This document shows positions 12,993 through 30,808 of a stretch of DNA of 64,000 bases, piece by piece (positions within the stretch are counted from its first letter, which is position 1; each line of letters opens with the position of its first letter). The DNA is taken from contig NZ_JAQSDY010000012.1 in assembly GCF_029946145.1 (NCBI RefSeq), positions 178,806-242,805 on the forward strand. The letters are read 5' to 3'. The translations under genes were made by a program, and so were the position numbers. This stretch comes from Brevundimonas sp. (lineage in GTDB: Bacteria; Pseudomonadota; Alphaproteobacteria; Caulobacterales; Caulobacteraceae). Under the pieces are notes generated by a model. It saw nothing but the letters and a program-made list of their open reading frames with translations. It had not been told where the DNA came from and searched no databases.

Positions 12993-14255
12993 TCAGGGGC
13001 GAACCGCCCCCTGCGCGCGGACCAGGTACTTGTAGGTGGTCAGCTGGGCCGCGCCGACGGGACCCCGGGCGTGCAGGCGCCCGGTGGCGATCCCGATCTC
13101 GCCGCCGAACCCGAACTGGCCGCCATCCGCGAACTGGGTGGAGGCGTTATGCATGACGATGGCGCTGTCGACGCGGTCCAGGAATTCGGCGGCGGCGGCC
13201 GGATCCTCCGTCACGATGGCGTCGGTGTGACCCGAGCCGTGCCGGGCGATATGCGCCAGGGCCTCGGCCATTCCGTCCACCACCCGGATGGCCAGGATCG
13301 GCGCCAGATGTTCAGTGGTCCAGTCGGCTTCGACGGCGGGCGTCGCCTCCGGCAAGATCGCACACGTCCGGGCGTCGCCGCGCAGGACGCAGCCGGCCGC
13401 CAGCAGGTCGTCGGCCACGGGCCGCAAGAGCGCATCCGCCACCGAGGCGTCGACCAGCAGGGTCTCGGTCGCGCCGCAGACCGTGACCCGCCGCATCTTG
13501 GCGTTCAAAACGATCCTGCGAGCCTTTTCCGGATCGGCGGCGGTGTGAAGGTAGGTGTGGCAAAGGCCCTCCAGATGTCCAAGCACGGGAGCCCGGGCCT
13601 CACTCTGGACCCGCTGCACCAGGCTGCGTCCACCGCGCGGGACGATGAGGTCGATGGCGCCGTTCAGGCCGGTCAGGAGGGCGCCCACCGCAGCACGGTC
13701 GGGGGTGCTGACCAACTGGACCAGGTCGCCCGGCAGTCCTGCCTTGGTCAGTCCCTCCACGAGGGCGGCGTGGATAGCGATGGCGCTGGCCAGCGCGGCT
13801 GAGCCGGACCGGAGGATCAGGGCGTTGCCGGAGCGCACGCACAGGGCCGCGGCGTCGACGGTGACATTCGGCCGGCTCTCGTAGATGACCGCCAGCACGC
13901 CGATCGGCACCCGGACACGGGCGATGTCGAGACCGCTGGGCGGCGTCCAGCGCTCGTCCTCGACACCCACGGGATCGGTTTGGCCGGCGATCTCCCGAAG
14001 GCCGTCGGCCATCCCCGCGACGCGGTCTCGGGTCAGCGCCAGTCGATCGAGCATGGCGTCGGCCATGTCCCCCTGACGCGCACGGGCCACATCGTCCTCA
14101 TTGGCCGCGAGGATTTCGTCGGCGCCACGCTCCAGGGCGTCCGCCATGGCGTGGAGGGCGGCGGTGCGGGCAGCCGCAGGTGTCATGCGCACAGACTCGA
14201 AGGCGGCGCGGGCGCGGTCGCCCATCGCCTGCATCGCGCCCTCGATCATTGTCAT
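12993..14255 (-). CDS. proA: Glutamate-5-semialdehyde dehydrogenase
   Basis: [69 protein letters not shown]. Start ATG 14255 overlaps the proB stop. Confidence 0.96.
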
Positions 14256-15415
14256 GACGTCAGCACCAGATCGTCGCGATGGATCGCAACGCCGGGACCC
14301 TTCCAGCCGAGCAGGGCCTCGAAATCGCGGCTGTTGCGGCCCTGGATCCGTCGACAATCACCGGCGGCGTAGGCGGCCAGGCCCATGCCGAGCGGTCCCG
14401 ACGGTCCGACTACCCGAACGCAGTCGCCGGAGTCGAAGTCACCCCGCACCTCGGAAACGCCCGAGGCCAGCAGGCTTTTGCCCCGGGCCAGCGCGACGGC
14501 GGCGCCGTCGTCAACAACCAGGACGCCGGCAGGCTCGAGGCTCCCGGCGATCCACTGCTTGTACGCGGTCATCGGTGTGCCGGGGGCGGCGATCAGGGTG
14601 GCCCTGGCGCCTCGTTCGAGGGCCGACAGTGGCGCACGGGCGGCGCCGGACAGGATCAGGGTCGAACAGCCGGCCGAACGGGCGATGCGGGCCGCCATCA
14701 GCTTTGTGACCATGCCGCCGGATCCGACGCCTGTCTGACTATTCGGGCCCTCTGCCGCCGCGAGGGCTTCGGGGGTCAGGTCAGCCAGAAACGGGATGTG
14801 GATCGCGCCCGGGTCGCGGCGTGGATCCGCAGTGTAGAGGCCGTCGACGTCCGACAGGAGCACCAGCAGGTCGGCTCTGGCGAGTTGCGCGGTGCGGGCG
14901 GCGAGCCTGTCGTTGTCGCCGTAGCGGATTTCCTCGGTGGCCACGGTGTCGTTTTCGTTGACCACGGGCACGACGGCGAGGGTCAGAAGCGCTTCGAGAG
15001 TGGCGCGGGCGTTCAGCCAGCGCCGCCGACGCTCGGTGTCTTCCCGGGTCAAGAGCACCTGGCCGGCGACGAGGTCGTGAGCCGTCAGCGCGGCGGACCA
15101 GGCCTGCATCAATATCGATTGCCCGACGGCGGCGGCGGCCTGCTTCTCGTCCAGTCGGGCGTCGGCGGAGAGGCCGAGACGTCGGCGCCCCAGGGCCACG
15201 GCGCCGGATGAGACGACGATGATCGCCTTGCCCGCCGTCCGGAGCCGGGCGACGTCTCCGGCCATGGCGTCAAGCCAGGCTTTATCAACATCGCCGCTGG
15301 CGGAATCGACGAGCAGCGACGACCCGATCTTCACCACCACCCGGCGCGCGGCGTCCAGGACCTGGCCCGCGTTCTGAACGCCGACTTCCGGCATGGATGT
15401 GGTGCTGGGGAGCAT
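14252..15415 (-). CDS. proB: Glutamate 5-kinase (with C-terminal PUA domain); start could be the second Met
   Basis: [46 protein letters not shown]. Confidence 0.96.
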
Positions 15416-15582
15416 GTCGCCAGCATGGCGGTCCCACCGGGCGATGCCAAGGCGTGCTGCGGGCTGTCAGGATGATTCTGCGATTGCCGCCGGCTGATGC
15501 TTTCACGCCGCCAGTAGCTGTTGCATCGTTCCGGGGGAGGCGATCAAATGTCGACGGCCGCGCACGGCCGGATGGAACGCTG

Positions 15583-16977
15583 ATGGCCGCCTCGCCCTTC
15601 CCCGCCTACGTCAGTACGCGCGGGTCCTCGCCGGATGTGGATTTCGTCGGCGCGCTACTGGCGGGAGTGGCCCCGGATGGTGGTCTGTATGTCCCGACGT
15701 TCTGGCCGCAGCTGACGGAGACGGCGGCCGCCGCCACGGGGACCGCTGATCTCGCCGCCGCGATCCTGGCTCCATTTGTCGGCGACTCCTTGCCGGCCGG
15801 GACGTTGGACCGCGCGGCGGCGCGGCTGACGGACCAGTTCAGCCACCCGGATACGACGCCGCTGGTGGAGCTGGAGTCCGGCCTCTTCGTGCTTGAGCTG
15901 TTCCATGGCCCCACGGCGGCCTTCAAGGACTATGCCATGCAGATGGTCGCCGTGCTGGCGGAGGCCGCACTCGGGGCGAGGGGCGAACGACTGTTGTTGG
16001 TGACCGCAACCAGCGGCGATACGGGCGCGGCGGCGGTGCGGGCTTTCGGCGGCGTGGACCGGATCGACCTCGTGGTGCTGCACCCCCTGGGGCGGGTGTC
16101 GCCGGTGCAGCGGCTGCAGATGACGACCTCCGGCGCCGCCAATGTGCTGAACCTGGCGGTGCGGGGCGACTTTGACGACTGCCAGCGGCTGGTGAAGGGA
16201 CTTCTGGCCCATCGCGCCCTGACGGCCGGGCGGCGTGTGAGCTCGGTGAACTCGATCAACTGGGCGCGCCTGGCCGGGCAGATCCCGTACTACGTCAGCG
16301 CGGCGCAGGCGTTGGGGCGCTCGGCGGGCAAGGCGACCTATGTCGTCCCGACGGGCAATTTCGGAGACGCCTTCGCGGGCTGGGCGGCGCGGCGGATGGG
16401 CCTGCCAATGGGCGGACTGGTGGCGGCCACGAACCGGAACGACGCCCTGGTGCGGGCGCTGGAGACCGGCGTCTACGAACGCATCCAGGCCGAGCCGACG
16501 GCGAGCGTCAGCATGGATGTGCAGGCGCCGTCCAATTTCGAGCGGCTGGTGTTCGAGGCCTCGGGTCGGGACAGCGCCCTCACGCGCGGTCTATTCGAGG
16601 ATTTCTCCCGCCACGGACGGGTGACCCTGCCCTCCGAGCTCCTGGCGGCGCTGCGGCGCGAGGTCTCGGCGGTTTCGGTCAGCGAGGCGGAAACCCGTCA
16701 TGAGATGGCGCGGACCCATGCGGAAACGGGACGCGTGATCTGTCCACACACGGCTGTGGCTCTCCACGCCGCGCGGCGGCTGGACCGGTCAGCGGGTCCC
16801 GTGGTCGCGCTGTCGACGGCCCACCCCGCCAAATTCCCGGAGGCGGTCGAGGCGGCCCTGGGTTTCGCCCCGGAACGCCCGCCTCAGCTGGAGGGGCTGG
16901 AAGGCCGGACCGAAGTGTTCGACACGATCGACCCGTCCCTCGACGCTGTTCTGGCCGCGATCGGCCGCGTCGACTGA
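15583..16977 (+). CDS. thrC: Threonine synthase
   Basis: YVSTRG, GVAPDGGLYVP, LELFHGPTAAFKD (PLP Lys), ATSGDTG, SVNSINWARL, VPTGNFGD, STAHPAKF. Confidence 0.96.
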   Translation: MAASPFPAYVSTRGSSPDVDFVGALLAGVAPDGGLYVPTFWPQLTETAAAATGTADLAAAILAPFVGDSLPAGTLDRAAARLTDQFSHPDTTPLVELESGLFVLELFHGPTAAFKDYAMQMVAVLAEAALGARGERLLLVTATSGDTGAAAVRAFGGVDRIDLVVLHPLGRVSPVQRLQMTTSGAANVLNLAVRGDFDDCQRLVKGLLAHRALTAGRRVSSVNSINWARLAGQIPYYVSAAQALGRSAGKATYVVPTGNFGDAFAGWAARRMGLPMGGLVAATNRNDALVRALETGVYERIQAEPTASVSMDVQAPSNFERLVFEASGRDSALTRGLFEDFSRHGRVTLPSELLAALRREVSAVSVSEAETRHEMARTHAETGRVICPHTAVALHAARRLDRSAGPVVALSTAHPAKFPEAVEAALGFAPERPPQLEGLEGRTEVFDTIDPSLDAVLAAIGRVD

Positions 16978-16979
16978 GG

Positions 16980-17927
16980 TCAGGCCGCCAGGCTCAACTC
17001 CGTCCACCAGTCCAGCCGTCGCAGGAACGGGGCGGGGTCCTTGGGCGTCACCAGGGCCCGGGTGTCGTGGAAAAGCCGGTCGTGCAGACGGGTGAGGATG
17101 AAGCGGACGGCGGCGACGGCGCCGAGGCCGGGCAGGGCCGCTTGCTCGGCGGCGGTGAGTGGGCGGATGGACTCATATCCAGTCTGGAACGCCTGGATGG
17201 CCGCCGGCAGCGGGGCGCCGTTCTCGTCGAAACCCCAGGCGGAGAGGGCGATGGCGAGATCGTAGGCCAGAGAGTCGACACAGGCGAAATAGAAGTCGAT
17301 CAGTCCGCTGACCGAGCCGCCTTCGAACAGGATGTTGTCGGGGAAATAGTCGGCGTGGATGGGCCCGCGCGGCAGGCCGGGGGCGGGATCGGGCGCGCCT
17401 TCGCCGACCCAGGGCGCGACCCGCTCGAGCAGACTTCGGTCAGAGCCCGTCGCGCGGCCGCTGCAGCGATCGAACAGCGCCCGCTGGCCCGCCAGTCCGA
17501 CGGGGTTGTCGCGGTGCGCGGGATAATCGGCGGCGGCGAGATGAAGGCGCGCGAGCATCACCCCGGCGGCTGTCTGGTCCGCCAGGGTCGGCCTGGCCGT
17601 GGACGCGCCAGGCAACCAGTTGAGGATGGCGGCCGGCCGGTCGTTCAGGCGGCCGATCGCGCGCCCGTCTTCATCGGTCAGGGCCCGGGCGCAAGGCAGG
17701 CCGCGCTCCGCCGCGTGCCGGGTCAGGCCGAGGCAGAAGGGCAGGGCGGCCGCGTCGGTGCGGCCCTCGAACAGGGTCAGGACGAATGACCCCTGATCGA
17801 CGTCGAGCCGGTAGTTGGTGTTCTCCACCCCTTCGGCGATGGGCGTCAGCGCGCGCAGCGGCCCAAGACCGAAGCGGCTAATGAAGGGCTCGGCGTCGGC
17901 TTCGTCCACGGGGGTGAAGACGGCCAT
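16980..17927 (-). CDS. thrB: Homoserine kinase, type II (APH-like)
   Basis: MAVFT, IAEGVENTNY, FVLTLFE, IHADYFPDN, IDFYFAC, KDP. Confidence 0.93.
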   Translation of the reverse strand: MAVFTPVDEADAEPFISRFGLGPLRALTPIAEGVENTNYRLDVDQGSFVLTLFEGRTDAAALPFCLGLTRHAAERGLPCARALTDEDGRAIGRLNDRPAAILNWLPGASTARPTLADQTAAGVMLARLHLAAADYPAHRDNPVGLAGQRALFDRCSGRATGSDRSLLERVAPWVGEGAPDPAPGLPRGPIHADYFPDNILFEGGSVSGLIDFYFACVDSLAYDLAIALSAWGFDENGAPLPAAIQAFQTGYESIRPLTAAEQAALPGLGAVAAVRFILTRLHDRLFHDTRALVTPKDPAPFLRRLDWWTELSLAA

Positions 17928-17928
17928 G

Positions 17929-19671
17929 TCAGGCGTTCCGGAGCGCGAGACGGCGGGCGGCGAGATCGGACAGGTCGGCCAACAGGCTTTCGGCCGTGGC
18001 CCAACGCCCGGCGCCCCGGCCCCGGCAACGAACGGCTGATCCGTCGGCGGCGATGACCTTCAAGGCGTTCTCCTCTCCCTTCAGCGCGGCGAACAGGGGG
18101 TCCACCGCATCGGCCACGAGGCGAACCTCGGCGACCAGCCGGCCGTTGTCCATCCGGCAGCGACACAGTTGCCGGGTCCCGATGGCGGCGGGGCTGTCGG
18201 CCGACAGGATGTCGCGCGGGATGTCGGCCTCGTCCGGCATGACGCCGAAGGCTTCGAAGGCCAGCAGGCGCACCTTGGCGGCGGCGTCGAGGCCTTCCAG
18301 ATCCGAAGACGGGTCCTCCTCGGCGAAACCGGCGGCGCGCGCCTCGGCCAGGGCGGTTTCGAATGAAGCGCCGCCGCCCAGCCGCTCGAGCATGAAGTTG
18401 ACCGTGCCGTTCAACACCGCTTCGAAAGCTGCGACCGGCCCTTGGGCGCGGGCCGCGCGCAAGGCCTCGACCATCGGCGCACCGCCGCCGACGGAGGCGG
18501 ACCACAGCAGTCTGGCGCCGTGCGCTTCCGCCAAGGCCAGCAGGCCGGCGGGATCGCGGCTGACGGCCTGTTTGTTGGCGCTGGCGACATCGACGCCGCG
18601 CTGGAGCGCCGCACGGATCAGGGCGTGGCCCGCCCCGGCCTCGGACAGGGCTTCCAGAAGGATGTCGGGCTCCCGATCCAGCAGGGCCGGGATGTCGGAC
18701 ACGAGCAACGGGGCGAGCGCTTCGGCGGAGACGCCCGGCACGTCGCGTGGCCGCGCGGGGTCGCGGACCAGCACGCCGACCACCTCGACGCGGCGGTCGG
18801 CGATCAGTCGGGCGAGAGCCCCGCCGCCGACCACGCCGCAACCGGCGACGGCGACCTTGAGCGGTCTGGAGGGCTGGACCGGGCGGGGCGGGGCGCTCCC
18901 GGCGCCGATGACCGTGCGGTGGCCGTCGGCGTGGTTGCGAACCTCGACGCGCAGGCGGCGGGCCTCGGCCAGATCCAGCGCGTCCGGCTGGACCAGTCCG
19001 CCGCCCAGCGTCTTGGCCTCGGCCCAGCTGGCGCGGTCGTAGCGCCGCGCCGCCGGGTCGGCGTTGGGGTCGCGGTCGTAGAGGCCGTCGACGTCCTTCA
19101 CCAGCTGGACGTGGTCCAGCCCCAGTTCGGCGGCGAGGAACAGGGCGGTCAGGTCGGACCCGCCGCGCCCCATCAGCACCACCCGCCCATCGGCGGTCAT
19201 GGCTCCGAATCCGGGAACAACCACGACTTCGTGCCGGTCGAGCGCCCGGTCCAGGGCTCCGCGGTTCAGGGTGACGGGACGGGCGTGCTCGCCGGGGCCC
19301 TCGGCCGCGATGCCGAGGTCGCGCACCGACAGGGTGGTGGCGCTGAGACCGATGCGGTCGCAGGCGAGGGCGGCGAGGGCGGCGGACCGTTCCTCGCCCT
19401 GGACGACACAGGCGGGCAGCAGGGGATTGTCGTGGGCGAGGCCGAGGGCTCGCGCTTCGGCCAGCAGCCGGTCGGTCTCGCCGGCGAAGGCGGACACCAC
19501 CGCGATGACCCGGCGGCCACGGCGCACCTCGGCGTAGATGTCCGAGGCGACAGCGGGTGCGTCGGCGGGCCCGGTGAGGACGGAGCTGCCGAATTTCATC
19601 ACCACGACGGGGACGTCGCGAGCGACGACGGCGGGAAGCGGTTCGGGGCGGAGGAGGGCGAGACCAGGCAT
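17929..19671 (-). CDS. Aspartate kinase - homoserine dehydrogenase fusion lacking ACT domains
   Basis: AK half: MKFGSS, VVSAFAGETD, GRGGSDLTA, KDVDGLYDRDP. HSDH half: GCGVVG, ASANKQ, ASVGGGAP, LNGTVNFML, GFAEEDPSSDLEGLDAAAK. Confidence 0.9.
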   Translation of the reverse strand: MPGLALLRPEPLPAVVARDVPVVVMKFGSSVLTGPADAPAVASDIYAEVRRGRRVIAVVSAFAGETDRLLAEARALGLAHDNPLLPACVVQGEERSAALAALACDRIGLSATTLSVRDLGIAAEGPGEHARPVTLNRGALDRALDRHEVVVVPGFGAMTADGRVVLMGRGGSDLTALFLAAELGLDHVQLVKDVDGLYDRDPNADPAARRYDRASWAEAKTLGGGLVQPDALDLAEARRLRVEVRNHADGHRTVIGAGSAPPRPVQPSRPLKVAVAGCGVVGGGALARLIADRRVEVVGVLVRDPARPRDVPGVSAEALAPLLVSDIPALLDREPDILLEALSEAGAGHALIRAALQRGVDVASANKQAVSRDPAGLLALAEAHGARLLWSASVGGGAPMVEALRAARAQGPVAAFEAVLNGTVNFMLERLGGGASFETALAEARAAGFAEEDPSSDLEGLDAAAKVRLLAFEAFGVMPDEADIPRDILSADSPAAIGTRQLCRCRMDNGRLVAEVRLVADAVDPLFAALKGEENALKVIAADGSAVRCRGRGAGRWATAESLLADLSDLAARRLALRNA

Positions 19672-19721
19672 GAACGGGGCTTTCGGTGCAGGGCGGGGAG
19701 GGAAAGGCGTGGGGCGGAATG

Positions 19722-19752
19722 AAAAACCCCGCCCGGGGGTCCGGGCGGGGTT
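19722..19752 (-). terminator. Intrinsic terminator of the thr attenuator
   Basis: Minus strand AACCCCGCCCGG-ACCC-CCGGGCGGGGTT then TTT: 12-bp GC-rich stem with U-tract, between the leader and the AK-HSDH start. Confidence 0.9.
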
Positions 19753-19783
19753 GGGTTATTGCGATCCTGAGCTTCGGTGCGCG

Positions 19784-19837
19784 CTAACCTGTCCCCGCCG
19801 TCGGCGTGGTGATGGTGGTGATGGTCATGGTGGTCAT
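19784..19837 (-). CDS. thrL: Thr/Ile(/Met)-rich leader peptide MTTMTITTITTPTAGTG
   Basis: 17 codons with 9 Thr, 2 Ile and 2 Met, ending just 5' of the terminator. Its 3' part (GGCGGGG...GGTTA) is complementary to the terminator 5' arm region. Confidence 0.88.
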   Translation of the reverse strand: MTTMTITTITTPTAGTG

Positions 19838-19983
19838 GCCGAGCCCGCCGAGGCGCACGATCTCGCCGCCGCGCGAAGCGGGCGAGAGGGCGGCGAAGGC
19901 TGCGGCGGAACGGATCACGGGACCAGGCTCACATTGAAGTGCAGGCGGCAGGCTGCGGGGCGCCACGGGCTTTCGTCAAGTCG

Positions 19984-20004
19984 TCCGGCAATATTATTGC
20001 CGGA
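19984..20004. promoter_or_regulatory. Inverted repeat TCCGGCAAT-ATT-ATTGCCGGA just upstream of a minus-strand TTGACG (-35-like)
   Basis: 9-bp perfect arms; TTGACG at 19979-19974 on the minus strand; the -10 element is poor. Confidence 0.45.
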
Positions 20005-20082
20005 TGGGCGCGAGTTGATCTGTTCAGGGCTTCGAGGAGCCATGTTGTGCGCTTTGGACGACACGGTTTCACTCATCATCGC

Positions 20083-21183
20083 TCAGGCCCAGTGCATCTG
20101 GACGCGATGCGCGGCGGCCCAGTGGATGGCGCGCAGACCGTCGATCACGGCATTGGCGGCGTCGCGCGTGCCCATGGTCCCCCCGAGGTCCTCGGTTGTC
20201 GCGCCGGCCGAGAGCACGGCGGCGACGGCGGCCTCGATCGAGGCCGCCTCGTCCTCCAGTCCGAGGCTGTGGCGCAGCATCAGGGCGGCGGACAGGATGG
20301 TCCCGACTGGATTGGCCTTGTCCTGGCCGGCGATGTCCGGCGCCGAGCCGTGGATCGGCTCGAACAGGCCGGGACCGTCGGCGCCCAGCGAGGCCGAGGG
20401 CAGCAGACCGATCGAGCCGCCCAGGACCGAGATCTCGTCCGACAGGATGTCGCCGAACATGTTCTCGGTCAGGATGACGTCATATTCGCGCGGCTTGCGG
20501 ATCAGATGCATGGCCATGGAGTCGACCAGGGCGTGCTCCAGTTCGATGCGGGGGAATTCCTCGGCGTGGACGCGGGTGACGACCTCGCGCCACAGGCGGC
20601 TGGTCTCCATCACATTGGCCTTGTCCACCGAGGTCACCTTGCCGCGCCGCAGCTGGGCGGTCCTGAAGGCGGCGCGGGCGATGCGTTCGATCTCGGGCGT
20701 GGTGTAGACACACAGGTCGGTGGCGCGGTCGGCGGTGCGGGTCTTCTCGCCGAAATAGATGCCGCCCGTCAGCTCGCGGAACACGATCAGATCGACGCCC
20801 TCGACGATCTCCTGCTTCAGCGGCGAGCGGTGGGCCAGCACCGGCGACACCTGCAGCGGCCGCAGATTGGCGAACAGACCCATGGCCTTGCGCAGGCCCA
20901 GCAGGCCTTCCTCGGGCCGGCGCGCGCCGCCGTCCCATTTGGGACCGCCGACCGCGCCCAGCAGCACGGCGTCGGCGGCGAGGCAGGCGCTGACCGTTTC
21001 CGGCGGCAGGGGATCGCCGGTCGCGTCGATCGCCGCGCCGCCGATCAGATGCTCGTGGAAGCGGAATTTATGCTCGAAGAAGTCGCCGATGACCGCCAGC
21101 ACGGCGCGGGCGGCGTGGACGACCTCGGGGCCGACCCCGTCGCCGGGCAGGACGACGATGTCGAAGGTGCGGGGAGCGGGCAT
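20083..21183 (-). CDS. leuB: 3-isopropylmalate dehydrogenase
   Basis: IVVLPGDGVGPEV, LGAVGGPKWD, FANLRP, FRELTGGIYFGE, VDKANVM, NMFGDILSD, EPIHGSAPDIAG. Start ATG 21183. Confidence 0.97.
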   Translation of the reverse strand: MPAPRTFDIVVLPGDGVGPEVVHAARAVLAVIGDFFEHKFRFHEHLIGGAAIDATGDPLPPETVSACLAADAVLLGAVGGPKWDGGARRPEEGLLGLRKAMGLFANLRPLQVSPVLAHRSPLKQEIVEGVDLIVFRELTGGIYFGEKTRTADRATDLCVYTTPEIERIARAAFRTAQLRRGKVTSVDKANVMETSRLWREVVTRVHAEEFPRIELEHALVDSMAMHLIRKPREYDVILTENMFGDILSDEISVLGGSIGLLPSASLGADGPGLFEPIHGSAPDIAGQDKANPVGTILSAALMLRHSLGLEDEAASIEAAVAAVLSAGATTEDLGGTMGTRDAANAVIDGLRAIHWAAAHRVQMHWA

Positions 21184-21773
21184 CAGGCGGTTTCCATTTC
21201 GTGAGCGGCCTCCCAGGCCGCGATGTCGGGCAGGCGGGCTTGCAGCCAGCCCAGGGTGTCGACGCCGTCCAGCAGGCAGCGGCGGGCGAACAGCTCGACC
21301 GTGAAGGGCGTGGGGGCGGCGTTGCCGCGGCGGATTTCTCCGGCCTCCAGATCGATGGTCACCGGCTGGTCGGGGAAGGCGGCGAGGTCGTCCCACGTCG
21401 CCTGATTGACCTCGATGGGCAGCAGGCCGGTCTTGAGGGCGTTGGAGGTGAAGATGTCGGCGATCGAGGTCGAGATCACCGCCTGGAAGCCGTAGTCGAC
21501 CAGCGCCCACGGGGCGTGTTCGCGCGACGAGCCGCAGGCGAAATTCGGCCCAGCCAGCAGGATGCGCCGCTCGGCCGGATCGATGCGATTCAAGACCGCC
21601 TCGGGCTTGGGCGAGCCGTCGGTCTCGTAGCGCCAGTCGTAAAAGGCCGCCTTGCCCAGTCCCTCGCGCGAGGTGGTGGTCAGGAAGCGCGCGGGGATGA
21701 TCTGGTCGGTGTCGATATTGGCCTGGCTGAGAACCACGGCCTTTGACGTCAGGGCTTGAAAGGCTTCAGGCAT
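21183..21773 (-). CDS. leuD: 3-isopropylmalate dehydratase small subunit
   Basis: [28 protein letters not shown]. Confidence 0.97.
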
Positions 21774-23178
21774 CGACGGCCTCCTTCAGATAGACGCGCG
21801 GGTCCCTCAGCACACCGGCGACGGCGCTGGCGGCGGCGGTAGCGGGGCTGGCCAGGATGGTGCGCGCGCCCTTGCCCTGACGGCCCTCGAAATTGCGGTT
21901 CGAGGTCGAGACGGCCAGCTGGCCCGGGGCGACGAAATCGCCGTTCATGGCGATGCACATCGAACAGCCGGGCAGGCGCCATTCGGCCCCGGCCTCGATG
22001 AAGACCCGGTCCAGACCTTCGGCCTCGGCGTCGCGTCGCACGGCCTCGGACCCGGGCACCACCAGCATGCGGACGCCGGGGCTGACCTTGCGGCCGCGCA
22101 GGACCTCGGCGGCGGCGCGCAGATCGGGCAGGCGGCCGTTGGTGCAGCTTCCGACGAAGACGACATCGACCGGATGGCCGGTCGTCGCCTCCCCGGCGGC
22201 GAAGCCCATGTAGGCCAGCGCCTTCTCGTCGGAGGCGTCGCGCGGGGCGGGGACGAGGGTCCCGATCGGCGAGCCGGCGTCGGGCGTGGTGCCCCAGGTG
22301 GCCATCGGCCGGATCGCCGCGCCGTCGATCTCGATCTCGGAATCGAACACCGCCCCGGGATCGCTCCTCAGGGTCAGCCAGTCGGCCGCCGCGCGTCCGA
22401 AGGCCTCGCCCTTCGGCACGTGCCGACGACCCTGCAGCCAGTCGATGGTGACCACGTCGGGGGCGATCATGCCGGCCCGGGCTCCGGCCTCGATCGACAT
22501 GTTGCAGACCGTCATCCGGCCTTCCATGTCCAGCGAGCGGACGGCCTCGCCGGCGTATTCGATGACATGGCCCGAACCGCCGCCGAAGCCGAGGCGGGCG
22601 ATGACGGCGAGGGCCACGTCCTTGCCCGACACGCCCGGTTGCAGCCGGCCCGTGACGGTGACCCGCATTGCCTTGGGCTTGCGCTGCAGCAGACACTGGG
22701 TCGCCAGCACATGGCCGACCTCCGAGGTGCCGATGCCGAAGGCCAGGGCTCCGAAGGCGCCGTGCGTCGCCGTATGGCTGTCGCCGCAGACGACGGTCAT
22801 GCCGGGCCGTGTCAGGCCCAGCTCCGGGCCCATGACATGGACCACGCCGCGATCGTCGCTGTCCCATCCGGCCAGCCGGACGCCATGGCGGGCGCAATTG
22901 GCCTCCAGCCGCTCGACCTGCGACCGCGCCGCCGCCGTCACATAGGGCCGTTCGCCGTCGGCGCCGGCGGGCAGGGTCGGGGTCGAATGGTCGAGGGTGG
23001 CGAAGGTGCGGTCGGGACGGCGCACGGCCAGGCCGCGCGCCTCGATCTCGCTGAAGGCCTGCGGGCTGGTGACCTCATGCACCAGATGCAGGTCGACATA
23101 GAGCACGCCCGGCGTGTCCACCGTTTCCGGCGTGACCACGTGCCGGTTCCAGACCTTGTCGAACAGGGTCTCACGCAT
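21766..23178 (-). CDS. leuC: 3-isopropylmalate dehydratase large subunit
   Basis: [62 protein letters not shown]. Confidence 0.97.
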
Positions 23179-24136
23179 GTTCGACCTCGCGTTTCGGTGC
23201 GGCGGCGGGCGCGGCGATGGGCTCCAGCCAGCCGAACCGGTCGGGCGTGGTTCCGTCGAACAGGCCGCGGAAGGCGGCGTTGACCGCCTTTGTCACCGGT
23301 CCCGGACCGGCGCAGCGGGTCGGAATGCCGTCGACCGAGCGCACCGGCGTGATCTCGGCCGCCGTGCCGGTCATGAAGATCTCGTCGGCGACATACAGGG
23401 CCTCGCGCGGCAGGATCTGTTCGCGGGTCTCATAGCCGAGGCCGCGAGCCAGCTTCAGCACGCTGTCGCGGGTGATGCCCATCAGGATGGAGGCGGCGGC
23501 GGGCGGGGTGATGATCTCGCCGTCCTTGACGAGGAACAGGTTCTCGCCGGCGCCTTCGGACAGGCGGCCGTCGGTGCCCAGGGCGATGCCCTCGCCGAAG
23601 CCGCCGACCCGCGCCTCGCGACCGATCAGATAGGAGGACAGATAGTTGCCGCCCGCCTTGGCACCCGAGGGCACGGTGTTGGGGGCGATGCGCGACCAGC
23701 TGGCGACGCAGGCGTCGACGCCCTTTTCCAGCGCCTCCTCGCCCAGATAGGCCCCCCACGGGAAGGCGGCGATGGCGACGTCGATGTTCATATTGTCGGG
23801 CGAGGGCGTCACCCCCATGCCGCACTGGCCGAGGAAGGCGATGGGCCGGATATAGGCGCTGCGCAGGCCGGTGGCGCGGACCGTCGCCTTGCAGGCCTCG
23901 ACCAGTTCGTCCTCGGTCCAGGGCAGCTGGAAATGGTACATCCGCGCGCTGTCGAACAACCGCCGCACATGGTCGGTCAGACGGAAGCCGCGCGGCCCGT
24001 CGGGGGTGTCATAGACGCGGATGCCCTCGAACACCGAGGTGCCGTAGTGGAGCGCGTGGCTCATGACGTGAATCTTCGCGTCGGCCCAGGGCGTCAGCTC
24101 GCCGTTGATCCAGATGTGTTCAGCCAGCGGCCGCAT
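23171..24136 (-). CDS. ilvE: Branched-chain amino acid aminotransferase
   Basis: [28 protein letters not shown] (PLP Lys), [25 protein letters not shown]. Confidence 0.96.
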
Positions 24137-25346
24137 AGGCGGGCTCCTCTTGATGGGTGACGGGTCGGGCGGCCTCGATGATGGCCAGCAGTTCGTGGTC
24201 GTTGATCTCGCCGATCTGGTCGGCGCGGGCCTTGAAGCCGGCGAAGGCGGCGGCCAGGTGCAGACCGGTCACCGGCTGGCCCAGCGTTTCGGCGCGCTTT
24301 GCGACGGCATGGCGGCCCGAATGTTTGCCCAGCACGAACCAGGTGCCTTCGAAGCCGACGTCCTGGGGGCGCATGATCTCGTAGGTCGAGGGATCGGCCA
24401 TCATGCCGTGCTGGTGAATGCCGGCCTCGTGGGCGAAGGCGTTGAGGCCGACGATGGCCTTGTTGCGGACCACCGGCGTGTGGGTGATCTCGCTCAGCAG
24501 ACGGCTGGCGCGGACCAGATGAGTGGCGTCCACGCCGGTGTGCAGGCCGTAGCGGTCCGACCGGGTGCGGATGGCCATGACCATCTCCTCGATCGAGGCG
24601 TTGCCGGCCCGCTCGCCGATGCCGTTGATGGCGCCCTCGACCTGACGCGCCCCGGCCTCGACGGCCGACAGGGAGTTGGCGACGGCCATGCCCAGGTCGT
24701 TGTGGCAGTGGGCGGAGAAGACGACCTGCGGGAAGCGGGCGCGGACGGTCGAGATCAGGGTGCGGAAGATGTCGCCGATCTCGCCCGGCGTGGAATAGCC
24801 GACGGTGTCGGGGATGTTCAGCGTCGTGGCCCCCGCCGCGGCGGCGACCTCGCACACCTCGGCCAGGAACTCCGGCTCGGTGCGGATGGCGTCCTCGGGG
24901 CTGAACTCCACGTCCTCGAAGCGGGTGCGGGCATAGGCGACGGCGCGCCCGGCGACCGACAGAACCTCGGCCTTCGACATTCTCAGCTTGGCCGAGCGGT
25001 GGATGGGGCTGGTCCCCAGAAAGATGTGGCAGCGCCGTTCCTCCGTCCCGCGCAGGGCGCGGTACGCCGCGTCGATGTCCGCCTCGCTCGCGCGGGCCAG
25101 CGAGCAGAAGACCGGGCCTTCCACCTCGCCGACCACGCGCCGGACACCTTCCTCGTCGCCGGGCGAGGCGGCGGCGAAGCCGGCCTCGACCACATCGACC
25201 TTCAGCGCGGCCAGCGCCCGGGCCATGCGCACCTTGTCGTCCGGCCCCATGGAGAAGCCCGGCGCCTGTTCCCCGTCGCGCAGGGTGGTGTCGAAGACGA
25301 CGACCCTGTCCGGGTCGGCGGCGACGGCGGTCTGAACCCGGGTCAT
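24120..25346 (-). CDS. leuA: 2-isopropylmalate synthase, short form (about 408 aa, no C-terminal regulatory domain)
   Basis: DTTLRDGEQAPG, HCHNDLGMAVANSL, GIGERAGN, AHEAGIHQHG, LGKHSGRHA, then a stop. Start ATG 25346. Confidence 0.92.
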   Translation of the reverse strand: MTRVQTAVAADPDRVVVFDTTLRDGEQAPGFSMGPDDKVRMARALAALKVDVVEAGFAAASPGDEEGVRRVVGEVEGPVFCSLARASEADIDAAYRALRGTEERRCHIFLGTSPIHRSAKLRMSKAEVLSVAGRAVAYARTRFEDVEFSPEDAIRTEPEFLAEVCEVAAAAGATTLNIPDTVGYSTPGEIGDIFRTLISTVRARFPQVVFSAHCHNDLGMAVANSLSAVEAGARQVEGAINGIGERAGNASIEEMVMAIRTRSDRYGLHTGVDATHLVRASRLLSEITHTPVVRNKAIVGLNAFAHEAGIHQHGMMADPSTYEIMRPQDVGFEGTWFVLGKHSGRHAVAKRAETLGQPVTGLHLAAAFAGFKARADQIGEINDHELLAIIEAARPVTHQEEPAYAAAG

Positions 25347-25606
25347 GCCGCTACCTCGGGATGGAAGGCGGCGGCCGGAGCCACGATGCGGGTGACGCCG
25401 AACAGCTTGTCTATCTGCCGGCCCAGGGTGTGGGGACAACGGCCGTCGTCGCGGCCGCGCACGGCCAGTTCGACGCGCCGGCCATGGCCCTCGTCGCTCA
25501 GGGTCATGCCGTCGATGTGGAAACCGCGGCGCTCGACGAGACCGATCAGGCGCTGGAGCGAGCCGTCGGCGCGGTCGATATGCAGGTGCAGGGTGTCAGC
25601 GGTCAT
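25343..25606 (-). CDS. ilvM: Acetolactate synthase II-type small subunit (ACT only, IlvM-like)
   Basis: 87 aa, LQRLIGLVERRGFHIDGM...RQIDKL; lies directly after the catalytic subunit. Confidence 0.8.
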   Translation of the reverse strand: MTADTLHLHIDRADGSLQRLIGLVERRGFHIDGMTLSDEGHGRRVELAVRGRDDGRCPHTLGRQIDKLFGVTRIVAPAAAFHPEVAA

Positions 25607-25607
25607 G

Positions 25608-27314
25608 TCAGGCGCCTTCCATCATTTCGGCGTTGTTCTTTCCGGGCGGGACCAGCGGCCACACATTCTCCCGGGGATCGATGATGACGTGGGCGAGGCA
25701 GGGGCCGTCGGCGGCCAGCAGGCGGGCGATTCCGGCCGGAACCTCCTCGCGCCGGCTAATTCGGAAGGCCTCTATGCCGAAGGCCTCGGCGACCCTGACG
25801 AAGTCCGGATTGTCGGACAGGTCGATCTCCGAATAGTTGCCGGCGAAGAACAGCTCCTGCCACTGGCGGACCAGTCCCAGGGAGCTGTTGTCCAGCAGCA
25901 GGATCTTCACCGCCACGCCATAGCGGCGCAGGGTGGCCAGCTCCTGGACGTTCATCATGAAGCCGCCGTCGCCGGCGATGACGACGACCGTCGCCTCCGG
26001 ATCCGCCAGCTTGGCGCCGATGCCGGCGGGCAGGCCGAAGCCCATGGCTCCCAGTCCGCCCGAGGTGATGTGGGCCTCCGGCTTTGAGAAGCGGCAGTGC
26101 TGGGCGGCCCACATCTGGTGCTGGCCGACGTCGCAGGCGGCGACGAAGGAGTCGCCGGCGGCTTCGGACACGGCTTTCAGCAGGGCCGGGGCGAAGACGC
26201 CCTCGCCCGGCGCGTCGTCGTAGCGGAAGGCGGTGCGTTGCACGCGGACGGCGCAGTGGATCATCCACGGATCGATGGTCAGGGTCTGGCCCGCCAGATG
26301 CGCGGTCAGCGCCTCGACCCCGGGCGCCAGTTCGCCCGCGACCGGAATCCAGGTCTCGCGCAGTTTGCCGATCTCCGAGGCGTCGATGTCGAAATGGATG
26401 ACCCGGGCGTGCGGGGCGAACTCGGCCAGCTTGCCGGTGGCGCGGTCGTCGAACCGGGCCCCGAAGACGATCAGCAGATCGGTCTCCTGCACCGCCTCAT
26501 TGGCCGCGCGCGCGCCGTGCATGCCCAGCATGCCCTGGAAGCCTGGGGCGTCCGTGGGGATGGTGCCCAGGGCATTCAGGGTCGCGACCGACGGAATGCC
26601 GGTGGCGTCGGCGAAGGCCCGAACCTGCTCGGTGGCCCGGCCGATCTTCACCCCGCCGCCGACATAGATCAGCGGCCGCCGGGCCTCGCGGATCGCCTGT
26701 GCGGCGGCGGCGATGGCGTCGTGATCGATCGTTGCGACCGTATTCGGATACGGGAAGCCGAAGTCCTCGGTGGTCTGGCCGACCTGGACATCCTTGGGCA
26801 GGTCGATCAGGACCGGGCCGGGTCTGCCCGAGGCGGCGATGTGGAAGGCTTCCTCGACCGCCGCCGGGATGTCGGCCGGGTCGCGCACCAGGATGGAGTG
26901 TTTCACGATCGGCAGGGTGACGCCCAGGATGTCGATCTCCTGGAAGGCGTCGGTCCCCATGACGCCCTGGGCGACATTGCCCGTGATGCAGACGATGGGG
27001 ACGGAATCCATCATCGCATTGGCGATGCCGGTGATCAGATTGGTGGCCCCCGGGCCGGAGGTGGCCAGGCAGACCCCGACCTTGCCGCTACGCCGGGCCC
27101 AGGCGTCGGCGGCGAAGGCGGCGGCCTGTTCGTGCCGGACCAGGATGTGGCGCAGCTTCGATCCGGCCAGGGCGTCATAGACCGGCATGATGGCGCCGCC
27201 CGGATAGCCGAACACCACCTCCACCCCCAGCCGCTCCAGGGTGGAGACGAGCAGGCGCGCGCCGCTACGGGGGGCGGCGACGGGTTCGGAAACGCGGACA
27301 GCGGCGGCGTTCAT
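25608..27314 (-). CDS. ilvG: Acetolactate synthase catalytic subunit (AHAS II/IlvG-like)
   Basis: FGYPGGAIMPVYDAL, RHEQ, TSGPGATN, FQEID, GARFDDRATG, DVGQHQMW, GDGGFMMN, VRQWQ. Confidence 0.9.
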   Translation of the reverse strand: MNAAAVRVSEPVAAPRSGARLLVSTLERLGVEVVFGYPGGAIMPVYDALAGSKLRHILVRHEQAAAFAADAWARRSGKVGVCLATSGPGATNLITGIANAMMDSVPIVCITGNVAQGVMGTDAFQEIDILGVTLPIVKHSILVRDPADIPAAVEEAFHIAASGRPGPVLIDLPKDVQVGQTTEDFGFPYPNTVATIDHDAIAAAAQAIREARRPLIYVGGGVKIGRATEQVRAFADATGIPSVATLNALGTIPTDAPGFQGMLGMHGARAANEAVQETDLLIVFGARFDDRATGKLAEFAPHARVIHFDIDASEIGKLRETWIPVAGELAPGVEALTAHLAGQTLTIDPWMIHCAVRVQRTAFRYDDAPGEGVFAPALLKAVSEAAGDSFVAACDVGQHQMWAAQHCRFSKPEAHITSGGLGAMGFGLPAGIGAKLADPEATVVVIAGDGGFMMNVQELATLRRYGVAVKILLLDNSSLGLVRQWQELFFAGNYSEIDLSDNPDFVRVAEAFGIEAFRISRREEVPAGIARLLAADGPCLAHVIIDPRENVWPLVPPGKNNAEMMEGA

Positions 27315-27317
27315 GGG

Positions 27318-28331
27318 TCAGGCGGCTTCCGACTTGGGTGCGTGCAGCCAGGCCATCCGCTCTCGCAGCTTCGCCCCGGTGATCTCGATGGGCTGCTCGC
27401 CGTCGACCTTGACCCAGGCGTCGTAGCGGGGCTTGCCGGCCTCGTTCTCGGCGATCCATTCGCGGGCGAACTGACCCGACTGGATCTCGTCCAGGATGGT
27501 CTTCATCCGGGCGCGGGTCTCGTCGGTGATGACGCGCGGGCCGGACTTGACCGAGCCCCATTTCGCCGTCTCCGAGATGAACTCGTTCATCCTGGTTATG
27601 CCGCCTTCGTAGAACAGGTCCACGATCAGCTTCAGCTCGTGCATGCATTCGAAATAGGCGATCTCGGGCTGGTAGCCGGCCTCGACCAGGGTGTTGAACC
27701 CGGACATGACCAGCTCCTTGGCGCCGCCGCACAGGACGGCCTGTTCGCCGAACAGATCGGTCTCGGTCTCCTCGCGGAAGGTGGTTTCCAGCAGGCCGCC
27801 GGTCGCCCCGCCATTGCCTCGGGCGTAGCCCATGGCGCGGTCGCGGGCCTTGCCGGTGGCGTCCTTCTCGATGGCGAACAGGGAGGGGACGCCCCGGCCG
27901 CGCTGGAACTCGCGACGGACCAGATCGCCCGGCCCCTTGGGCGCGACCAGGATGACGTCCATATCCGCGCGCGGCGTGATCCGGCCGTAGATGATCGAGA
28001 AGCCGTGGGCGAACAGGATGGCGGCGCCCGGTTTGGCGTTGGGCTCGATGACGTCGCGATAGACCTCGGCCTGGATCATGTCCGGGGTCAGGATGGCGAT
28101 GATGTCCGCGTCCCGGACGGCCTCGTCAGGTTCGGCGGTCGGAACGCCGTCGGCGGTGGCATTGCGCCAGCCCTTGCCGCCGTGGCGAACGCCGGCGACC
28201 ACATCGTGGCCGGAGTCCTTCAGGTTCTGGGCGTGGGCCCGGCCTTGCGAGCCGTAGCCGATGATGGCGATGCGCTGGCCGGCGATGGCGCCGGGGCGAA
28301 TATCGTCATTGGTGTAGATGGTGATGGCCAT
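27318..28331 (-). CDS. ilvC: Ketol-acid reductoisomerase (short, class I)
   Basis: [44 protein letters not shown]. Confidence 0.97.
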
Positions 28332-28334
28332 GGT

Positions 28335-30089
28335 TCAGGCGTCCTCTCGGGCGGATCGGGTTTCGGTTTCAGCGGGACGCTGCACCGGCGGCGGATCGGG
28401 AATGGTCACGGCGCCCTGGGCGGCGGAGGCCACCGAGGCGCGATATTTGGCGAAGACTCCGTGCGCCGGGCGGATCGATCGGGGGACGAAGTCCGCCCGG
28501 CGCTTCACCAGATCGGCGTCGACGTCGATCCGGCGGTTGCTGACGTCGATGGCGATGCGGTCACCGTCGCGAATGAGAGCGATCGGGCCGCCGACCGCCG
28601 CCTCGGGCGAGACGTGGCCGGCGACAAAGCCGTAGCTGGCCCCCGAGAAGCGGCCGTCGGTGATCAGGGCGACGTTGTCGACGCCGCGACCCTTCAGGGC
28701 GGCGGTGACCTGCAGCATCTCGCGCATCCCCGGACCGCCCTTGGGGCCTTCGTAGCGGATGACGATGACGTCGCCCTCGCCGACCGAGCCGTCCTGGACC
28801 GCGTGGAAGGCGTCTTCCTCGCTGTCGAAGACGCAGGCCGGGCCCTCGAACCGGTCGACCTTGTGGCCGGTCAGCTTGATGACCGCCCCGTCGGGGGCGA
28901 TGTCGCCATAGATGACGGCGTAGCTGCCGCGATCCATGACCGGGGCGGCGAAGTCGGCGACGACCTGCTGGCCCGGGGTCTCCTCGGCCTCGGCGGCCTC
29001 GGCGAACAGGCTGCGGCCGCTGACGGTGGGGGCGTTGACGATCTTGCCCGCCGCCGCCATTCGCTGGGCGACTAGCCGCGTGCCGCCGGCCGCGAACAGG
29101 TGCGAGGCCAGGAAGCGGCCGCCCGGCTTCAGGTCGCAGATGACCGGGGCGTCGACGCAGGCTTGGTGGCAGTCCTCGATGCCGAACTCCACGCCCGCCT
29201 CGGCGGCGATGGCGGTCAGGTGCATGACGGCGTTGGTCGAGCCGCCCGAGGCGGAGACGGCGACGGCGGCGTTTCTCAGGCTTGCCCGGGTGATGTATTT
29301 GCGGGCCGTGTCGCCGGCGAACACCCGCTCGACGATCAGCCGGCCGCAGCGCTCGCCCTCGGCGCCCTTGGCCGGATCGACGGCGGGCACGTCATTGGCG
29401 CCCATGGGCGACAGGCCCATGACCGTCAGGGCCATGGCCATGGTGTTGGCGGTGAACTGACCGCCGCAGGCTCCCGCGCCGGGGCAGACGGCGCTCTCGA
29501 CGGCCTGCAGCCCGGCGTCGTCCAGCGCGCCCGCGGCGTGGGCGCCGATGGCCTCGAAGATGTCCTGGACCGAGACTTCCCGCGCGCCGATGCGGCCGGG
29601 CAGGATGGTGCCGCCGTAATAGACCAGACCGGGGATATCCATCCGCGCCAGGGCCATGGCGGCGGCGGGAATGGTCTTGTCGCATCCGACGATGCAGATG
29701 ACGCCGTCCAGCTGGTGGCCCTCGACGGCCAGTTCGATGGAGTCGGCGACGACCTCGCGGCTGATCAGCGAGGCCTTCATCCCCGCCGTGCCCATGGAGA
29801 TGCCGTCGGTGACGACGATGGTGTTGAAGTCGACCGGCCAGCCGCCCGCCGCGATGATCCCGGCGCGAACATCCTTCGCCAGCCGGTCCAGGTGCATGTT
29901 GCACGGGGTGACCGACGACCAGGTGTTGACCACCGCGATCATCGGCTTGTCGAAGTCGGCGTCCTGCATGCCGGCGGCGCGCAGATAGCTGCGCGCGGCG
30001 GCCCGGCTGGGACCGGCCGTGACGGCGCGGCTGCGCGCATTCGGCGGGCGGCCGTCCGGTCCGGGGCGTGAGGTGAAATCTTGCGTCAT
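28335..30089 (-). CDS. ilvD: Dihydroxy-acid dehydratase
   Basis: [60 protein letters not shown]. Start ATG 30089. Confidence 0.97.
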
Positions 30090-30130: not shown

Positions 30131-30159
30131 AAAAAACCCGCTTCCTTTCGGGAGCGGGT
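30131..30159 (-). terminator. Intrinsic terminator of the ilv/leu attenuator
   Basis: Minus strand ACCCGCTCCC-GAAA-GGAAGCGGGT-TTTTT (one mismatch, GAAA loop, U-tract), about 40 nt before the ilvD ATG. Confidence 0.9.
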
Positions 30160-30189
30160 GGCTGCGGGCGATCCTGAAGGGGCTTGGGT

Positions 30190-30288
30190 TCAGGTTGCGT
30201 GCATCCACACCGCTCCGGGGAGCAGCACAAGCGATACAACGAGAATAAGGGTTCTAGGGGCGATCAGGACGTTCGACTCGCGCGCCAT
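30190..30288 (-). CDS. ilvL: Leu/Ile/Val-rich leader peptide [32 protein letters not shown]
   Basis: 32 codons with an [10 protein letters not shown] run. An in-frame GTG at 30342 with a GGAG SD is an alternative start. GGAGCGG-T-GTGG is complementary to CCAC-CCGCTCC at the terminator 5' arm. Confidence 0.85.
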
Positions 30289-30368
30289 CGCAGTCGCCGA
30301 AACGGCGATGGTGCGATCAGCGATGCGGGCGCTGTTGGCCACGTGAATCTCCAGTTCGATTGAAGACT

Positions 30369-30416
30369 ACCCACATTTTGCTGCGGTGCACAAGGTAGTT
30401 TCGCAACAATATTGCG
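30369..30416 (-). promoter_or_regulatory. Putative sigma70 promoter of the ilv leader with upstream CGCAA-N5-TTGCG palindrome
   Basis: TTGTGC (30393-30388), 18 nt spacer, TAGTCT starting at 30369; palindrome at 30402-30416. Confidence 0.4.
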
Positions 30417-30808
30417 CAACTTCGCAGAAACCTTGCTCCCGCCGCAAGAATCATCCCGAACGGGGCGCGGCAGTCTTTCCCGCGAAGGCGCCGCCATACG
30501 GAAATCGGGCCAGCGCCAATACGCCTGAGGACTCGGCAGCCGTCACGAACGTCCTGAGTCACAAATCGATGGGGATGTCGGAGAGGGTGCTGTTACCATC
30601 AAAGCCTTGCCACCCCAGCCGACCGAAGCTGAGGTGGGCGGGAGCTGCTCAGGTGCTTCCACTGCGCGCCCGCCGAACTCCCAATCAGGTTACAAGAATG
30701 GCGATCAAAGCCATTGGCGAAGGGATGGCCGCCTTGACGTTGCGGACAGTCATTGAGGCCGCGCCGTGCCACGGGCCGGATCACCCGTTGAGCGGGCCCG
30801 GCAGGCGC

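Follow-up and report, generated by a model that had tools for sequence, protein, structure and literature searches.

Putatively attenuated ilv-leu and thr operons and their trimmed biosynthetic enzymes in a Brevundimonas genome

Introduction

The DNA considered here is a stretch of 64,000 nucleotides from a Brevundimonas sp. (contig NZ_JAQSDY010000012.1, positions 178,806 to 242,805), referred to at its full length as the window, which carries on its minus strand an ilv-leu operon for branched-chain amino acid synthesis and, directly after it, a short thr operon. A candidate leader-peptide attenuator precedes each operon, and three of the enzymes encoded are smaller than their well-known counterparts: a fused aspartokinase-homoserine dehydrogenase (AK-HSDH), the isopropylmalate synthase (IPMS) LeuA, and an acetohydroxyacid synthase (AHAS) with a small subunit of 87 amino acids. 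That AHAS, IPMS and aspartokinase are feedback-inhibited is textbook biochemistry, and this inhibition is the first thing that engineers remove when valine, leucine or threonine is to be overproduced. An earlier reading made from the letters alone, here called the sequence-only reading, had proposed that none of the three enzymes has a feedback module, that each lies behind a leader attenuator, and that allostery has been replaced by attenuation alone in one coherent design.

Results

Organization of the locus

The source genome measures 3.49 Mb in 32 contigs with a marker-gene completeness of 100%; the G+C content of the window is ~70% and its top protein matches are named Brevundimonas. Genes were called on the minus strand by Pfam and NCBIfam profile searches of the window proteins, giving the order ilvD-ilvC-ilvG-ilvM-leuA-ilvE-leuC-leuD-leuB followed by the AK-HSDH gene and thrB. 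The features, including the leader open reading frames (ORFs), are as follows.

30190 to 30342, minus strand: ilv-leu leader ORF, 50 codons, GTG start
30131 to 30217, minus strand: ilv attenuator switch, with terminator at 30131-30161 (competing folds, seven-species alignment)
28335 to 30089, minus strand: ilvD, dihydroxy-acid dehydratase, heading the operon (ILVD_EDD_N and ILV_EDD_C domains)
27318 to 28331, minus strand: ilvC, ketol-acid reductoisomerase (KARI_N and KARI_C domains)
25608 to 27314, minus strand: ilvG, AHAS II-type large subunit (NF006524 above cut-off)
25343 to 25606, minus strand: ilvM-type AHAS small subunit, 87 amino acids (ACT_5 domain)
24120 to 25346, minus strand: leuA, 408 amino acids, without LeuA_dimer (HMGL-like and HCS_D2, NF002086)
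23171 to 24136, minus strand: ilvE, branched-chain aminotransferase, start overlapping the end of leuA (Pfam/NCBIfam)
21766 to 23178, minus strand: leuC (Pfam)
21183 to 21773, minus strand: leuD (Pfam)
20083 to 21183, minus strand: leuB (Pfam)
19784 to 19837, minus strand: thr leader ORF, MTTMTITTITTPTAGTG, Thr/Ile-rich, 17 codons
19720 to 19807, minus strand: thr attenuator switch, with terminator at 19725-19752 (competing folds)
17929 to 19671, minus strand: AK-HSDH fusion without ACT, 580 amino acids (Pfam, NCBIfam, AlphaFold, Foldseek)
16980 to 17927, minus strand: thrB, APH-type homoserine kinase, thrB_alt (NF003558, 310 bits against a cut-off of 271)

The stop codon of ilvM (TGA) is overlapped by the ATG of leuA, leuA reaches its stop 17 nt into ilvE, and stop and start codons also overlap among leuC, leuD and leuB, the TGA of leuD with the ATG of leuB. 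As the gene boundaries overlap or abut throughout, the nine ilv-leu genes are taken as one translationally coupled unit. A gap of 411 nt separates leuB from the AK-HSDH gene.

The ilv-leu and thr attenuators

The ilv leader starts with a GTG that follows a GGAG, and nine Ile, Leu or Val codons fall within a run of 12 (at 30220-30252), most of them the rare codons CTT, ATT, GTT and GTA; in the operon's own genes CTT accounts for 1.4% of Leu codons, GTA for 0.3% and GTT for 4% of Val codons, and ATT for 5% of Ile codons. The leader ORF, its start and its Ile/Leu/Val run are conserved in seven species. Downstream lies a terminator hairpin (30137-30161; -15.6 kcal/mol) with a T6 tract, the 5' arm of which can pair instead with strand 2 (30205-30217; GGAGCGGTGTGG) from the last part of the leader ORF, the resulting antiterminator fold reaching -32.9 kcal/mol. 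Both the terminator with its T6 and the long-range 1:2 helix are kept in the seven-species alignment. Covariation is scarce, the paired columns of that alignment being nearly invariant, and the support for the attenuator therefore comes from conservation and competing energetics and not from compensatory changes. The ilv terminator was missed by a simple terminator scan on account of one mismatch in its stem; terminators were found in all the related ilv and thr loci examined. Rfam at gathering thresholds gave no family anywhere in the window, the ilv leader had no Rfam match even when sub-threshold hits were included, and a scan for consensus sigma-70 promoters found none.

The thr leader ORF contains nine Thr and two Ile among its 17 codons, and an in-frame GTG at 19918 would extend it to 44 codons. 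A terminator with a 12-bp stem and a T5 tract follows, and its 5' arm can pair with the tail of the leader (19788-19807), the competing fold having an energy of -31.3 kcal/mol. A Thr/Ile-rich leader with a conserved tail was present upstream of the fusion in all 29 usable Brevundimonas loci, where the terminators range from -17 to -28 kcal/mol and leader tail and terminator arm form a duplex of -20.2 kcal/mol on average (shuffled tails gave -11.4). Both attenuators proposed in the sequence-only reading thus appear to be real and conserved; its claim that each enzyme has one is to be amended, as one and the same ilv attenuator, ~3-5 kb upstream of their genes, serves both LeuA and IlvGM.

Two further sequence elements recur in the two leader regions. 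A 10-mer, TCAGGATCGC, is identical at 19761-19770 and 30168-30177 (minus strand); it falls within the loop of either antiterminator fold, a few bases ahead of the respective terminator stem, is invariant in the seven-species ilv alignment, and may act in pausing or in the binding of a protein. An AT-rich and partly palindromic element, in this strain GCAA-N5-TTGC, is found in both promoters, 8-12 nt before the -35 box (~19985-20003 and ~30404-30420, minus strand). An AT-rich stretch in this position is general in the thr promoters of the genus. GCAA-N5-TTGC was considered as a possible operator common to both operons; the exact pattern is kept in only four of seven ilv and four of 29 thr promoters.

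Beyond thrB, thrC (15397-16977, plus strand) is convergent with it and lies outside the attenuated operon, and the minus strand at 12993-15415 encodes proB (AA_kinase and PUA domains) and a proA-like aldehyde dehydrogenase.

Architecture of the AK-HSDH fusion

The Pfam domains of the AK-HSDH are AA_kinase (residues 22-246), NAD_binding_3 (277-389) and Homoserine_dh (399-567), and no ACT domain was found in its 580 residues by Pfam, by NCBIfam or in an AlphaFold model computed from 28 members of the family (pLDDT 92, pTM 0.91), which bears out the sequence-only reading on this protein. In the model an AK fold from residue 22 to ~256 passes directly into a Rossmann fold from 271, and a junction of ~25 residues stands in place of the central ACT/interface region (~200 amino acids) of proteins such as ThrA and MetL. 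The kinase half aligns with residues 3-251 of Corynebacterium glutamicum LysC, ending where the LysC ACT domains begin, the dehydrogenase half aligns with monofunctional HSDHs, and the Foldseek matches of the model are exclusively HSDHs and aspartokinases, among them the Sulfolobus tokodaii HSDH in complex with cysteine. The catalytic motifs KFGSS, GRGGSD, KDVDG, ANKQ and DPS..D..G.DAA.K are kept across 28 diverse fusion proteins.

Against the ThrA equivalog NF006959 the protein scores 152 bits (cut-off 726) and against NF007003 101 bits (cut-off 582), the top-scoring NCBIfam models being those of monofunctional Hom (NF004976) and LysC (NF005154). An origin as a ThrA with a deleted ACT region was rejected, since each half scores highest against the monofunctional models. 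Judged by these profiles and by the predicted structure, the protein is a LysC-like kinase core joined straight to a Hom-like dehydrogenase, the ACT region being absent.

Architecture of LeuA

LeuA scores 299 bits with HMGL-like and 95 bits with HCS_D2, and covers positions 3-384 of the 516 of NF002086 at 545 bits (cut-off 532), remaining below the cut-off of TIGR00973 (505 against 599 bits). It ends after the accessory subdomain and retains the catalytic barrel: it aligns with the crystallised catalytic fragment of Neisseria meningitidis IPMS (3rmj, residues 9-370) with RDGEQ, HxH and GERAGNA conserved, and its alignment to the MAM structure 6e1j stops at the corresponding point, query residue 390. 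The leucine-binding domain LeuA_dimer (PF08502) was found neither in the protein nor anywhere in the genome, and the absence of a regulatory domain, as the sequence-only reading had it, is thus confirmed. A frameshifted or split gene was considered and rejected, as leuA ends inside ilvE and the genome has no coding capacity for LeuA_dimer. Nor does the genome hold a second LeuA; its one other HMGL-like protein scores 135 against 300 bits.

AHAS and its small subunit

IlvG scores 841 bits against the AHAS II equivalog NF006524 (cut-off 738), and as the single match above cut-off in a TIGR00118 search of its own genome it is the sole true AHAS there. IlvM consists of one ACT_5 domain, the second domain of such subunits (ALS_ss_C) not being present. 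It was the only match, at 22 bits, in a TIGR00119 search of the genome, and no small subunit of the IlvH/IlvN type was found in the whole-genome search. The resemblance to Escherichia coli IlvM is weak but specific (28% identity in the same register, pairwise E 2e-6, with a common GFH motif). The protein also aligns position for position with residues 6-82 of E. coli IlvH, which form the valine-binding ACT domain; at the position of IlvH N11 it has an Arg, and at that of N29 a His, as does E. coli IlvM.

E. coli AHAS II is valine-insensitive (PMC5727371), as the sequence-only reading had stated, and by analogy with it this IlvGM would be insensitive too. A short ACT subunit is no proof of this, because E. 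coli AHAS I, with a small subunit (IlvN) equally short, is fully inhibited by valine (PMC5727371). The size and type given to the subunit in the sequence-only reading thus stand, but not the statement that it has no feedback module, since IlvM is itself an ACT domain, lacking only ALS_ss_C.

Other pathway enzymes in the genome

The short LeuA and IlvGM are the genome's only enzymes for their steps. A second HSDH is encoded on contig C9 (4797-5741; locus L075, 1489-3927), is without ACT and is 56% identical to the HSDH half of the fusion. As a gene for a Cys/Met pyridoxal phosphate (PLP) enzyme lies directly upstream of it, it is probably a methionine-side copy; in most of the fusion-carrying Brevundimonas no counterpart was found. 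That a sensor might be hidden in the 100-residue N-terminal extension of its ORF was rejected, the extension having no Pfam match; the open frames of its orthologues range from 339 to 728 amino acids, and the shortest leaves ~20-50 extra residues at most.

Distribution among relatives

The distribution of these traits within the genus was taken from 80 Brevundimonas species genomes (G001-G080). The fusion occurs in 52 of them, a further 16 have only a stand-alone HSDH and 12 have neither. Short LeuA proteins are found in 42 genomes, among which they are 67-96% identical with an internal stop in one, the LeuA_dimer domain in eight, and the fusion and the short LeuA together in 41. Seven of the 80 combine the fusion with a LeuA that bears LeuA_dimer, and have no short LeuA. 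About a third of the sample, including several complete genomes, has no short LeuA, no LeuA_dimer domain and no fusion, and this suggests that branched-chain amino acid auxotrophy is common in Brevundimonas. The ilv-leu and thr operons are adjacent in only one subclade of the genus.

The same ilv-leu operon is found in three other genera of the family, for which the tallies include an unpublished genome (G104) counted as one ordinary full-length LeuA, on which no particular statement depends. In genera g12 and g8 LeuA is truncated and a leader and terminator precede the operon, g12 having the short LeuA without the fusion. Genus g17 combines the fusion and the same operon with a LeuA that has a diverged C-terminal domain of ~140 amino acids (loci L157, 7259-7681; L158, 6886-7296; L159, 6789-7199), which matches LeuA_dimer at only 22-25 bits and may be an intermediate toward loss.

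The fusion was found in six genera of the family and, in a sample of 400 genomes from the class, only within the order. A library-wide search gave 727 fusion representatives at E<=1e-30, and nearly all of the best 150 of these are full-length (540-620 amino acids). The named records include Asticcacaulis, Maricaulis, Glycocaulis, Parvularculaceae, Sphingomonas deserti and Peristeroidobacter, and metagenome-assembled genomes (MAGs) with the fusion belong to the Acidobacteriota, Planctomycetota, Gemmatimonadota and Rhodothermia. ESM Atlas neighbours of the fusion, and likewise of the short LeuA, are in agreement and serve as leads only. The family, currently annotated only as "homoserine dehydrogenase", is large and uncharacterised and extends across several phyla. 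Its existence is at odds with a published general statement, according to which AK and HSDH genes in the Alphaproteobacteria are all monofunctional, with neither fusions nor duplicates (Fondi et al.; PMC1885841). Full-text literature searches returned nothing on the Brevundimonas enzymes and leaders described here.

A Thr/Ile leader also precedes the fusion in S. deserti, Glycocaulis, Maricaulis, Robiginitomaculum and three alphaproteobacterial MAGs. In the Acidobacteriota and Planctomycetota (L096, L115, L119, L123, L125) the gene immediately ahead of the fusion has a product that resembles a Cys/Met PLP enzyme at its end, with no leader found upstream of the fusion in these loci, and the context is that of a methionine operon rather than a threonine operon. 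In gammaproteobacterial loci (Steroidobacteraceae and MAGs; L099-L103, L107, L117) a strong terminator-like hairpin with a T-run was seen upstream of the fusion, with no obvious Thr/Ile leader, and a different leader or a riboswitch-type control is possible there.

Discussion

The interpretation that we favour, and hold to be probable, is that two conserved units of ribosome-mediated attenuation stand before trimmed enzymes, with attenuation as the main end-product control of the leucine branch and of AHAS and with allostery retained at LysC and IlvA. According to this model the 50-codon ilv leader, through its rare Ile, Leu and Val codons, would control terminator readthrough into ilvDCGM-leuA-ilvE-leuCDB, and the Thr/Ile leader would control readthrough into thrA'-thrB in the same way. 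The antiterminator strand would in each case be supplied by the final codons of the leader ORF and would compete for the terminator's 5' arm; stalling of a ribosome at the regulatory codons would leave this strand free and so permit readthrough, whilst a ribosome that reaches the stop codon would cover it and let the terminator form. LysC, with two ACT domains, would gate the entry of aspartate and IlvA, with one, the entry into isoleucine synthesis.

As neither LeuA nor AHAS has a second copy in the genome, the leucine branch most likely owes its end-product control to transcription attenuation, and the shared AHAS step probably does too; at these two steps attenuation is the only recognisable end-product control. 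Control "by attenuation alone", as put forward in the sequence-only reading, is therefore sustained in part: there is no backup LeuA, LeuA_dimer or IlvH/IlvN in the genome, but it does not describe the pathways as a whole, because LysC and IlvA, encoded elsewhere, keep their sensor domains.

Several of the findings weigh against the attenuation model or narrow its reach. The genome encodes, on another contig, a monofunctional LysC with two ACT domains, as well as a 400-amino-acid IlvA (threonine ammonia-lyase) with a C-terminal ACT-like domain, and the entry steps of the aspartate family and of isoleucine therefore retain allosteric modules. IlvM, as an ACT domain in its own right, keeps the glycine equivalent to G14 of IlvH, so that valine binding is possible. 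The insensitivity of the three enzymes is deduced from their sequences, and so is the full activity of the natural short LeuA, from its status as sole copy and its conservation, because removal of the regulatory domain by engineering impairs IPMS activity in Mycobacterium tuberculosis, N. meningitidis and Leptospira (PMC9860122). The Rfam Thr_leader model (RF00506) matches the thr leader over its full length (19722-19848) at only 18.8 bits (E 0.46), against a gathering threshold of 55, and the AT-rich element upstream of the promoters could be an operator or an UP element, and thus a further transcriptional input.

Two other explanations have to be weighed, neither of which we think likely. 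The first is that allostery has been kept by non-canonical means, with the ACT domain of IlvM binding valine, LeuA or AK-HSDH inhibited at or near the active site, or an ACT-bearing protein of the LysC beta type acting in trans, attenuation then being one of two layers as it is in E. coli. The residue-for-residue alignment of IlvM with the valine-binding domain of IlvH, the retained glycine and the valine inhibition of E. coli AHAS I in spite of its equally short subunit (PMC5727371) all speak for it, as do the existence of HSDHs that are without ACT and yet inhibitable at the active site, the S. tokodaii enzyme-cysteine complex among the fold matches being an example, and the presence of the two-ACT LysC. 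However, the position of IlvH N29 is a His, as in the valine-insensitive IlvM of E. coli, and that of N11 an Arg; IlvG scores as an AHAS II equivalog; no LeuA_dimer is available anywhere in the genome to act in trans; and the short junction of the fusion has no space for a sensor fold.

The second, to which we give an equally low probability, is that the arrangement is a by-product of lineage history, in which operon and fusion were separately inherited or acquired, the domain losses were neutral or reductive in a genus prone to pathway loss, and their co-occurrence has no regulatory meaning. The traits are indeed separable, as is shown by the seven Brevundimonas with the fusion and a domain-bearing LeuA, by g17 with its full-length LeuA and by g12 with a short LeuA and no fusion; about a third of the sampled Brevundimonas has neither gene, and in the Acidobacteriota and Planctomycetota the fusion stands without a leader behind a Cys/Met PLP enzyme gene. 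Such a history does not readily account for the leader and terminator that precede the operon where LeuA is short (g1, g8, g12), for the Thr/Ile leaders that precede the fusion both in Brevundimonas and in the other alphaproteobacteria named above, or for the identity maintained among the short LeuA proteins, of which a single one is interrupted.

The ilvGMEDA operon of E. coli and Salmonella is the closest parallel to the ilv-leu unit: there too a multivalent Ile/Leu/Val leader and a terminator stand before an operon starting the common pathway, which encodes an IlvG-type AHAS and, in the same register, a small subunit like the 87-amino-acid IlvM found here. The Brevundimonas operon differs in the addition of ilvC, leuA and leuCDB and the absence of ilvA, and its 50-codon leader is unrelated in sequence to ilvL. 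E. coli also has the valine-sensitive AHAS I and III, whereas IlvGM is the only AHAS of the Brevundimonas genome, and this in a member of the Alphaproteobacteria, a class reported to have a single AHAS III-type enzyme (PMC5727371).

The thr unit bears a similar relation to thrLABC of E. coli, with which it shares a Thr/Ile leader and terminator, a bifunctional AK-HSDH and then a homoserine kinase. Here, in contrast, thrB is of the APH type, thrC lies outside the operon and the leader is sub-threshold for Rfam Thr_leader. ThrA has ~820 amino acids and a central ACT region, while the Brevundimonas fusion has 580 and no ACT, and in both halves it is closer to monofunctional LysC and Hom than to ThrA. 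E. coli MetL is repressed and not feedback-inhibited (PMC1885841), and by comparison with it control of the AK-HSDH is probably exerted through expression only.

For LeuA the parallels are the short enzymes of the IPMS family, namely Leptospira LeuA2, Sulfolobus IPMS, plant MAM/IPMS3, apple citramalate synthase and banana IPMS splice forms, which likewise consist of barrel and accessory subdomain without the leucine-binding domain. In the plant enzymes loss of the regulatory region abolishes feedback inhibition (PMC7826400, PMC12994207). The Brevundimonas LeuA differs from these in being a bacterial-type enzyme (NF002086) and the sole IPMS of a free-living bacterium, where it serves primary leucine synthesis and is no second isozyme or side-pathway enzyme. 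The ripening isoforms of banana have feedback sensitivity removed at both AHAS and IPMS, two sequential control points (PMC12994207); there this is achieved by alternative splicing, transiently in a plant tissue, whereas in Brevundimonas it would be fixed in the genes, with attenuation remaining.

The precedents of MetL and the plant IPMS enzymes make a reading based on attenuation plausible, and the coherent design advanced in the sequence-only reading may be called plausible to that extent, judged from the sequences. The three traits do not always occur together in the relatives, and their separability speaks against a single coordinated design event; it fits a stepwise loss of sensors in operons which were already attenuated.

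At the level of the genus, we would suggest tentatively, and with rather less assurance than the attenuation model itself, that about half of the sampled Brevundimonas make leucine and valine without an allosteric end-product sensor at AHAS or IPMS, one multivalent attenuator taking its place, and that they make use of a threonine-specific AK-HSDH from a large, undescribed, multi-phylum family without ACT, of an origin independent of ThrA and MetL and regulated only in its expression. If the enzymes are insensitive, this would be a free-living bacterium whose only IPMS and only AHAS are without the known sensing parts. Its genes would then offer natural feedback-free enzymes for production strains at the three classic targets of deregulation, and its operons a test case for the replacement of fast allostery by slow transcriptional control.

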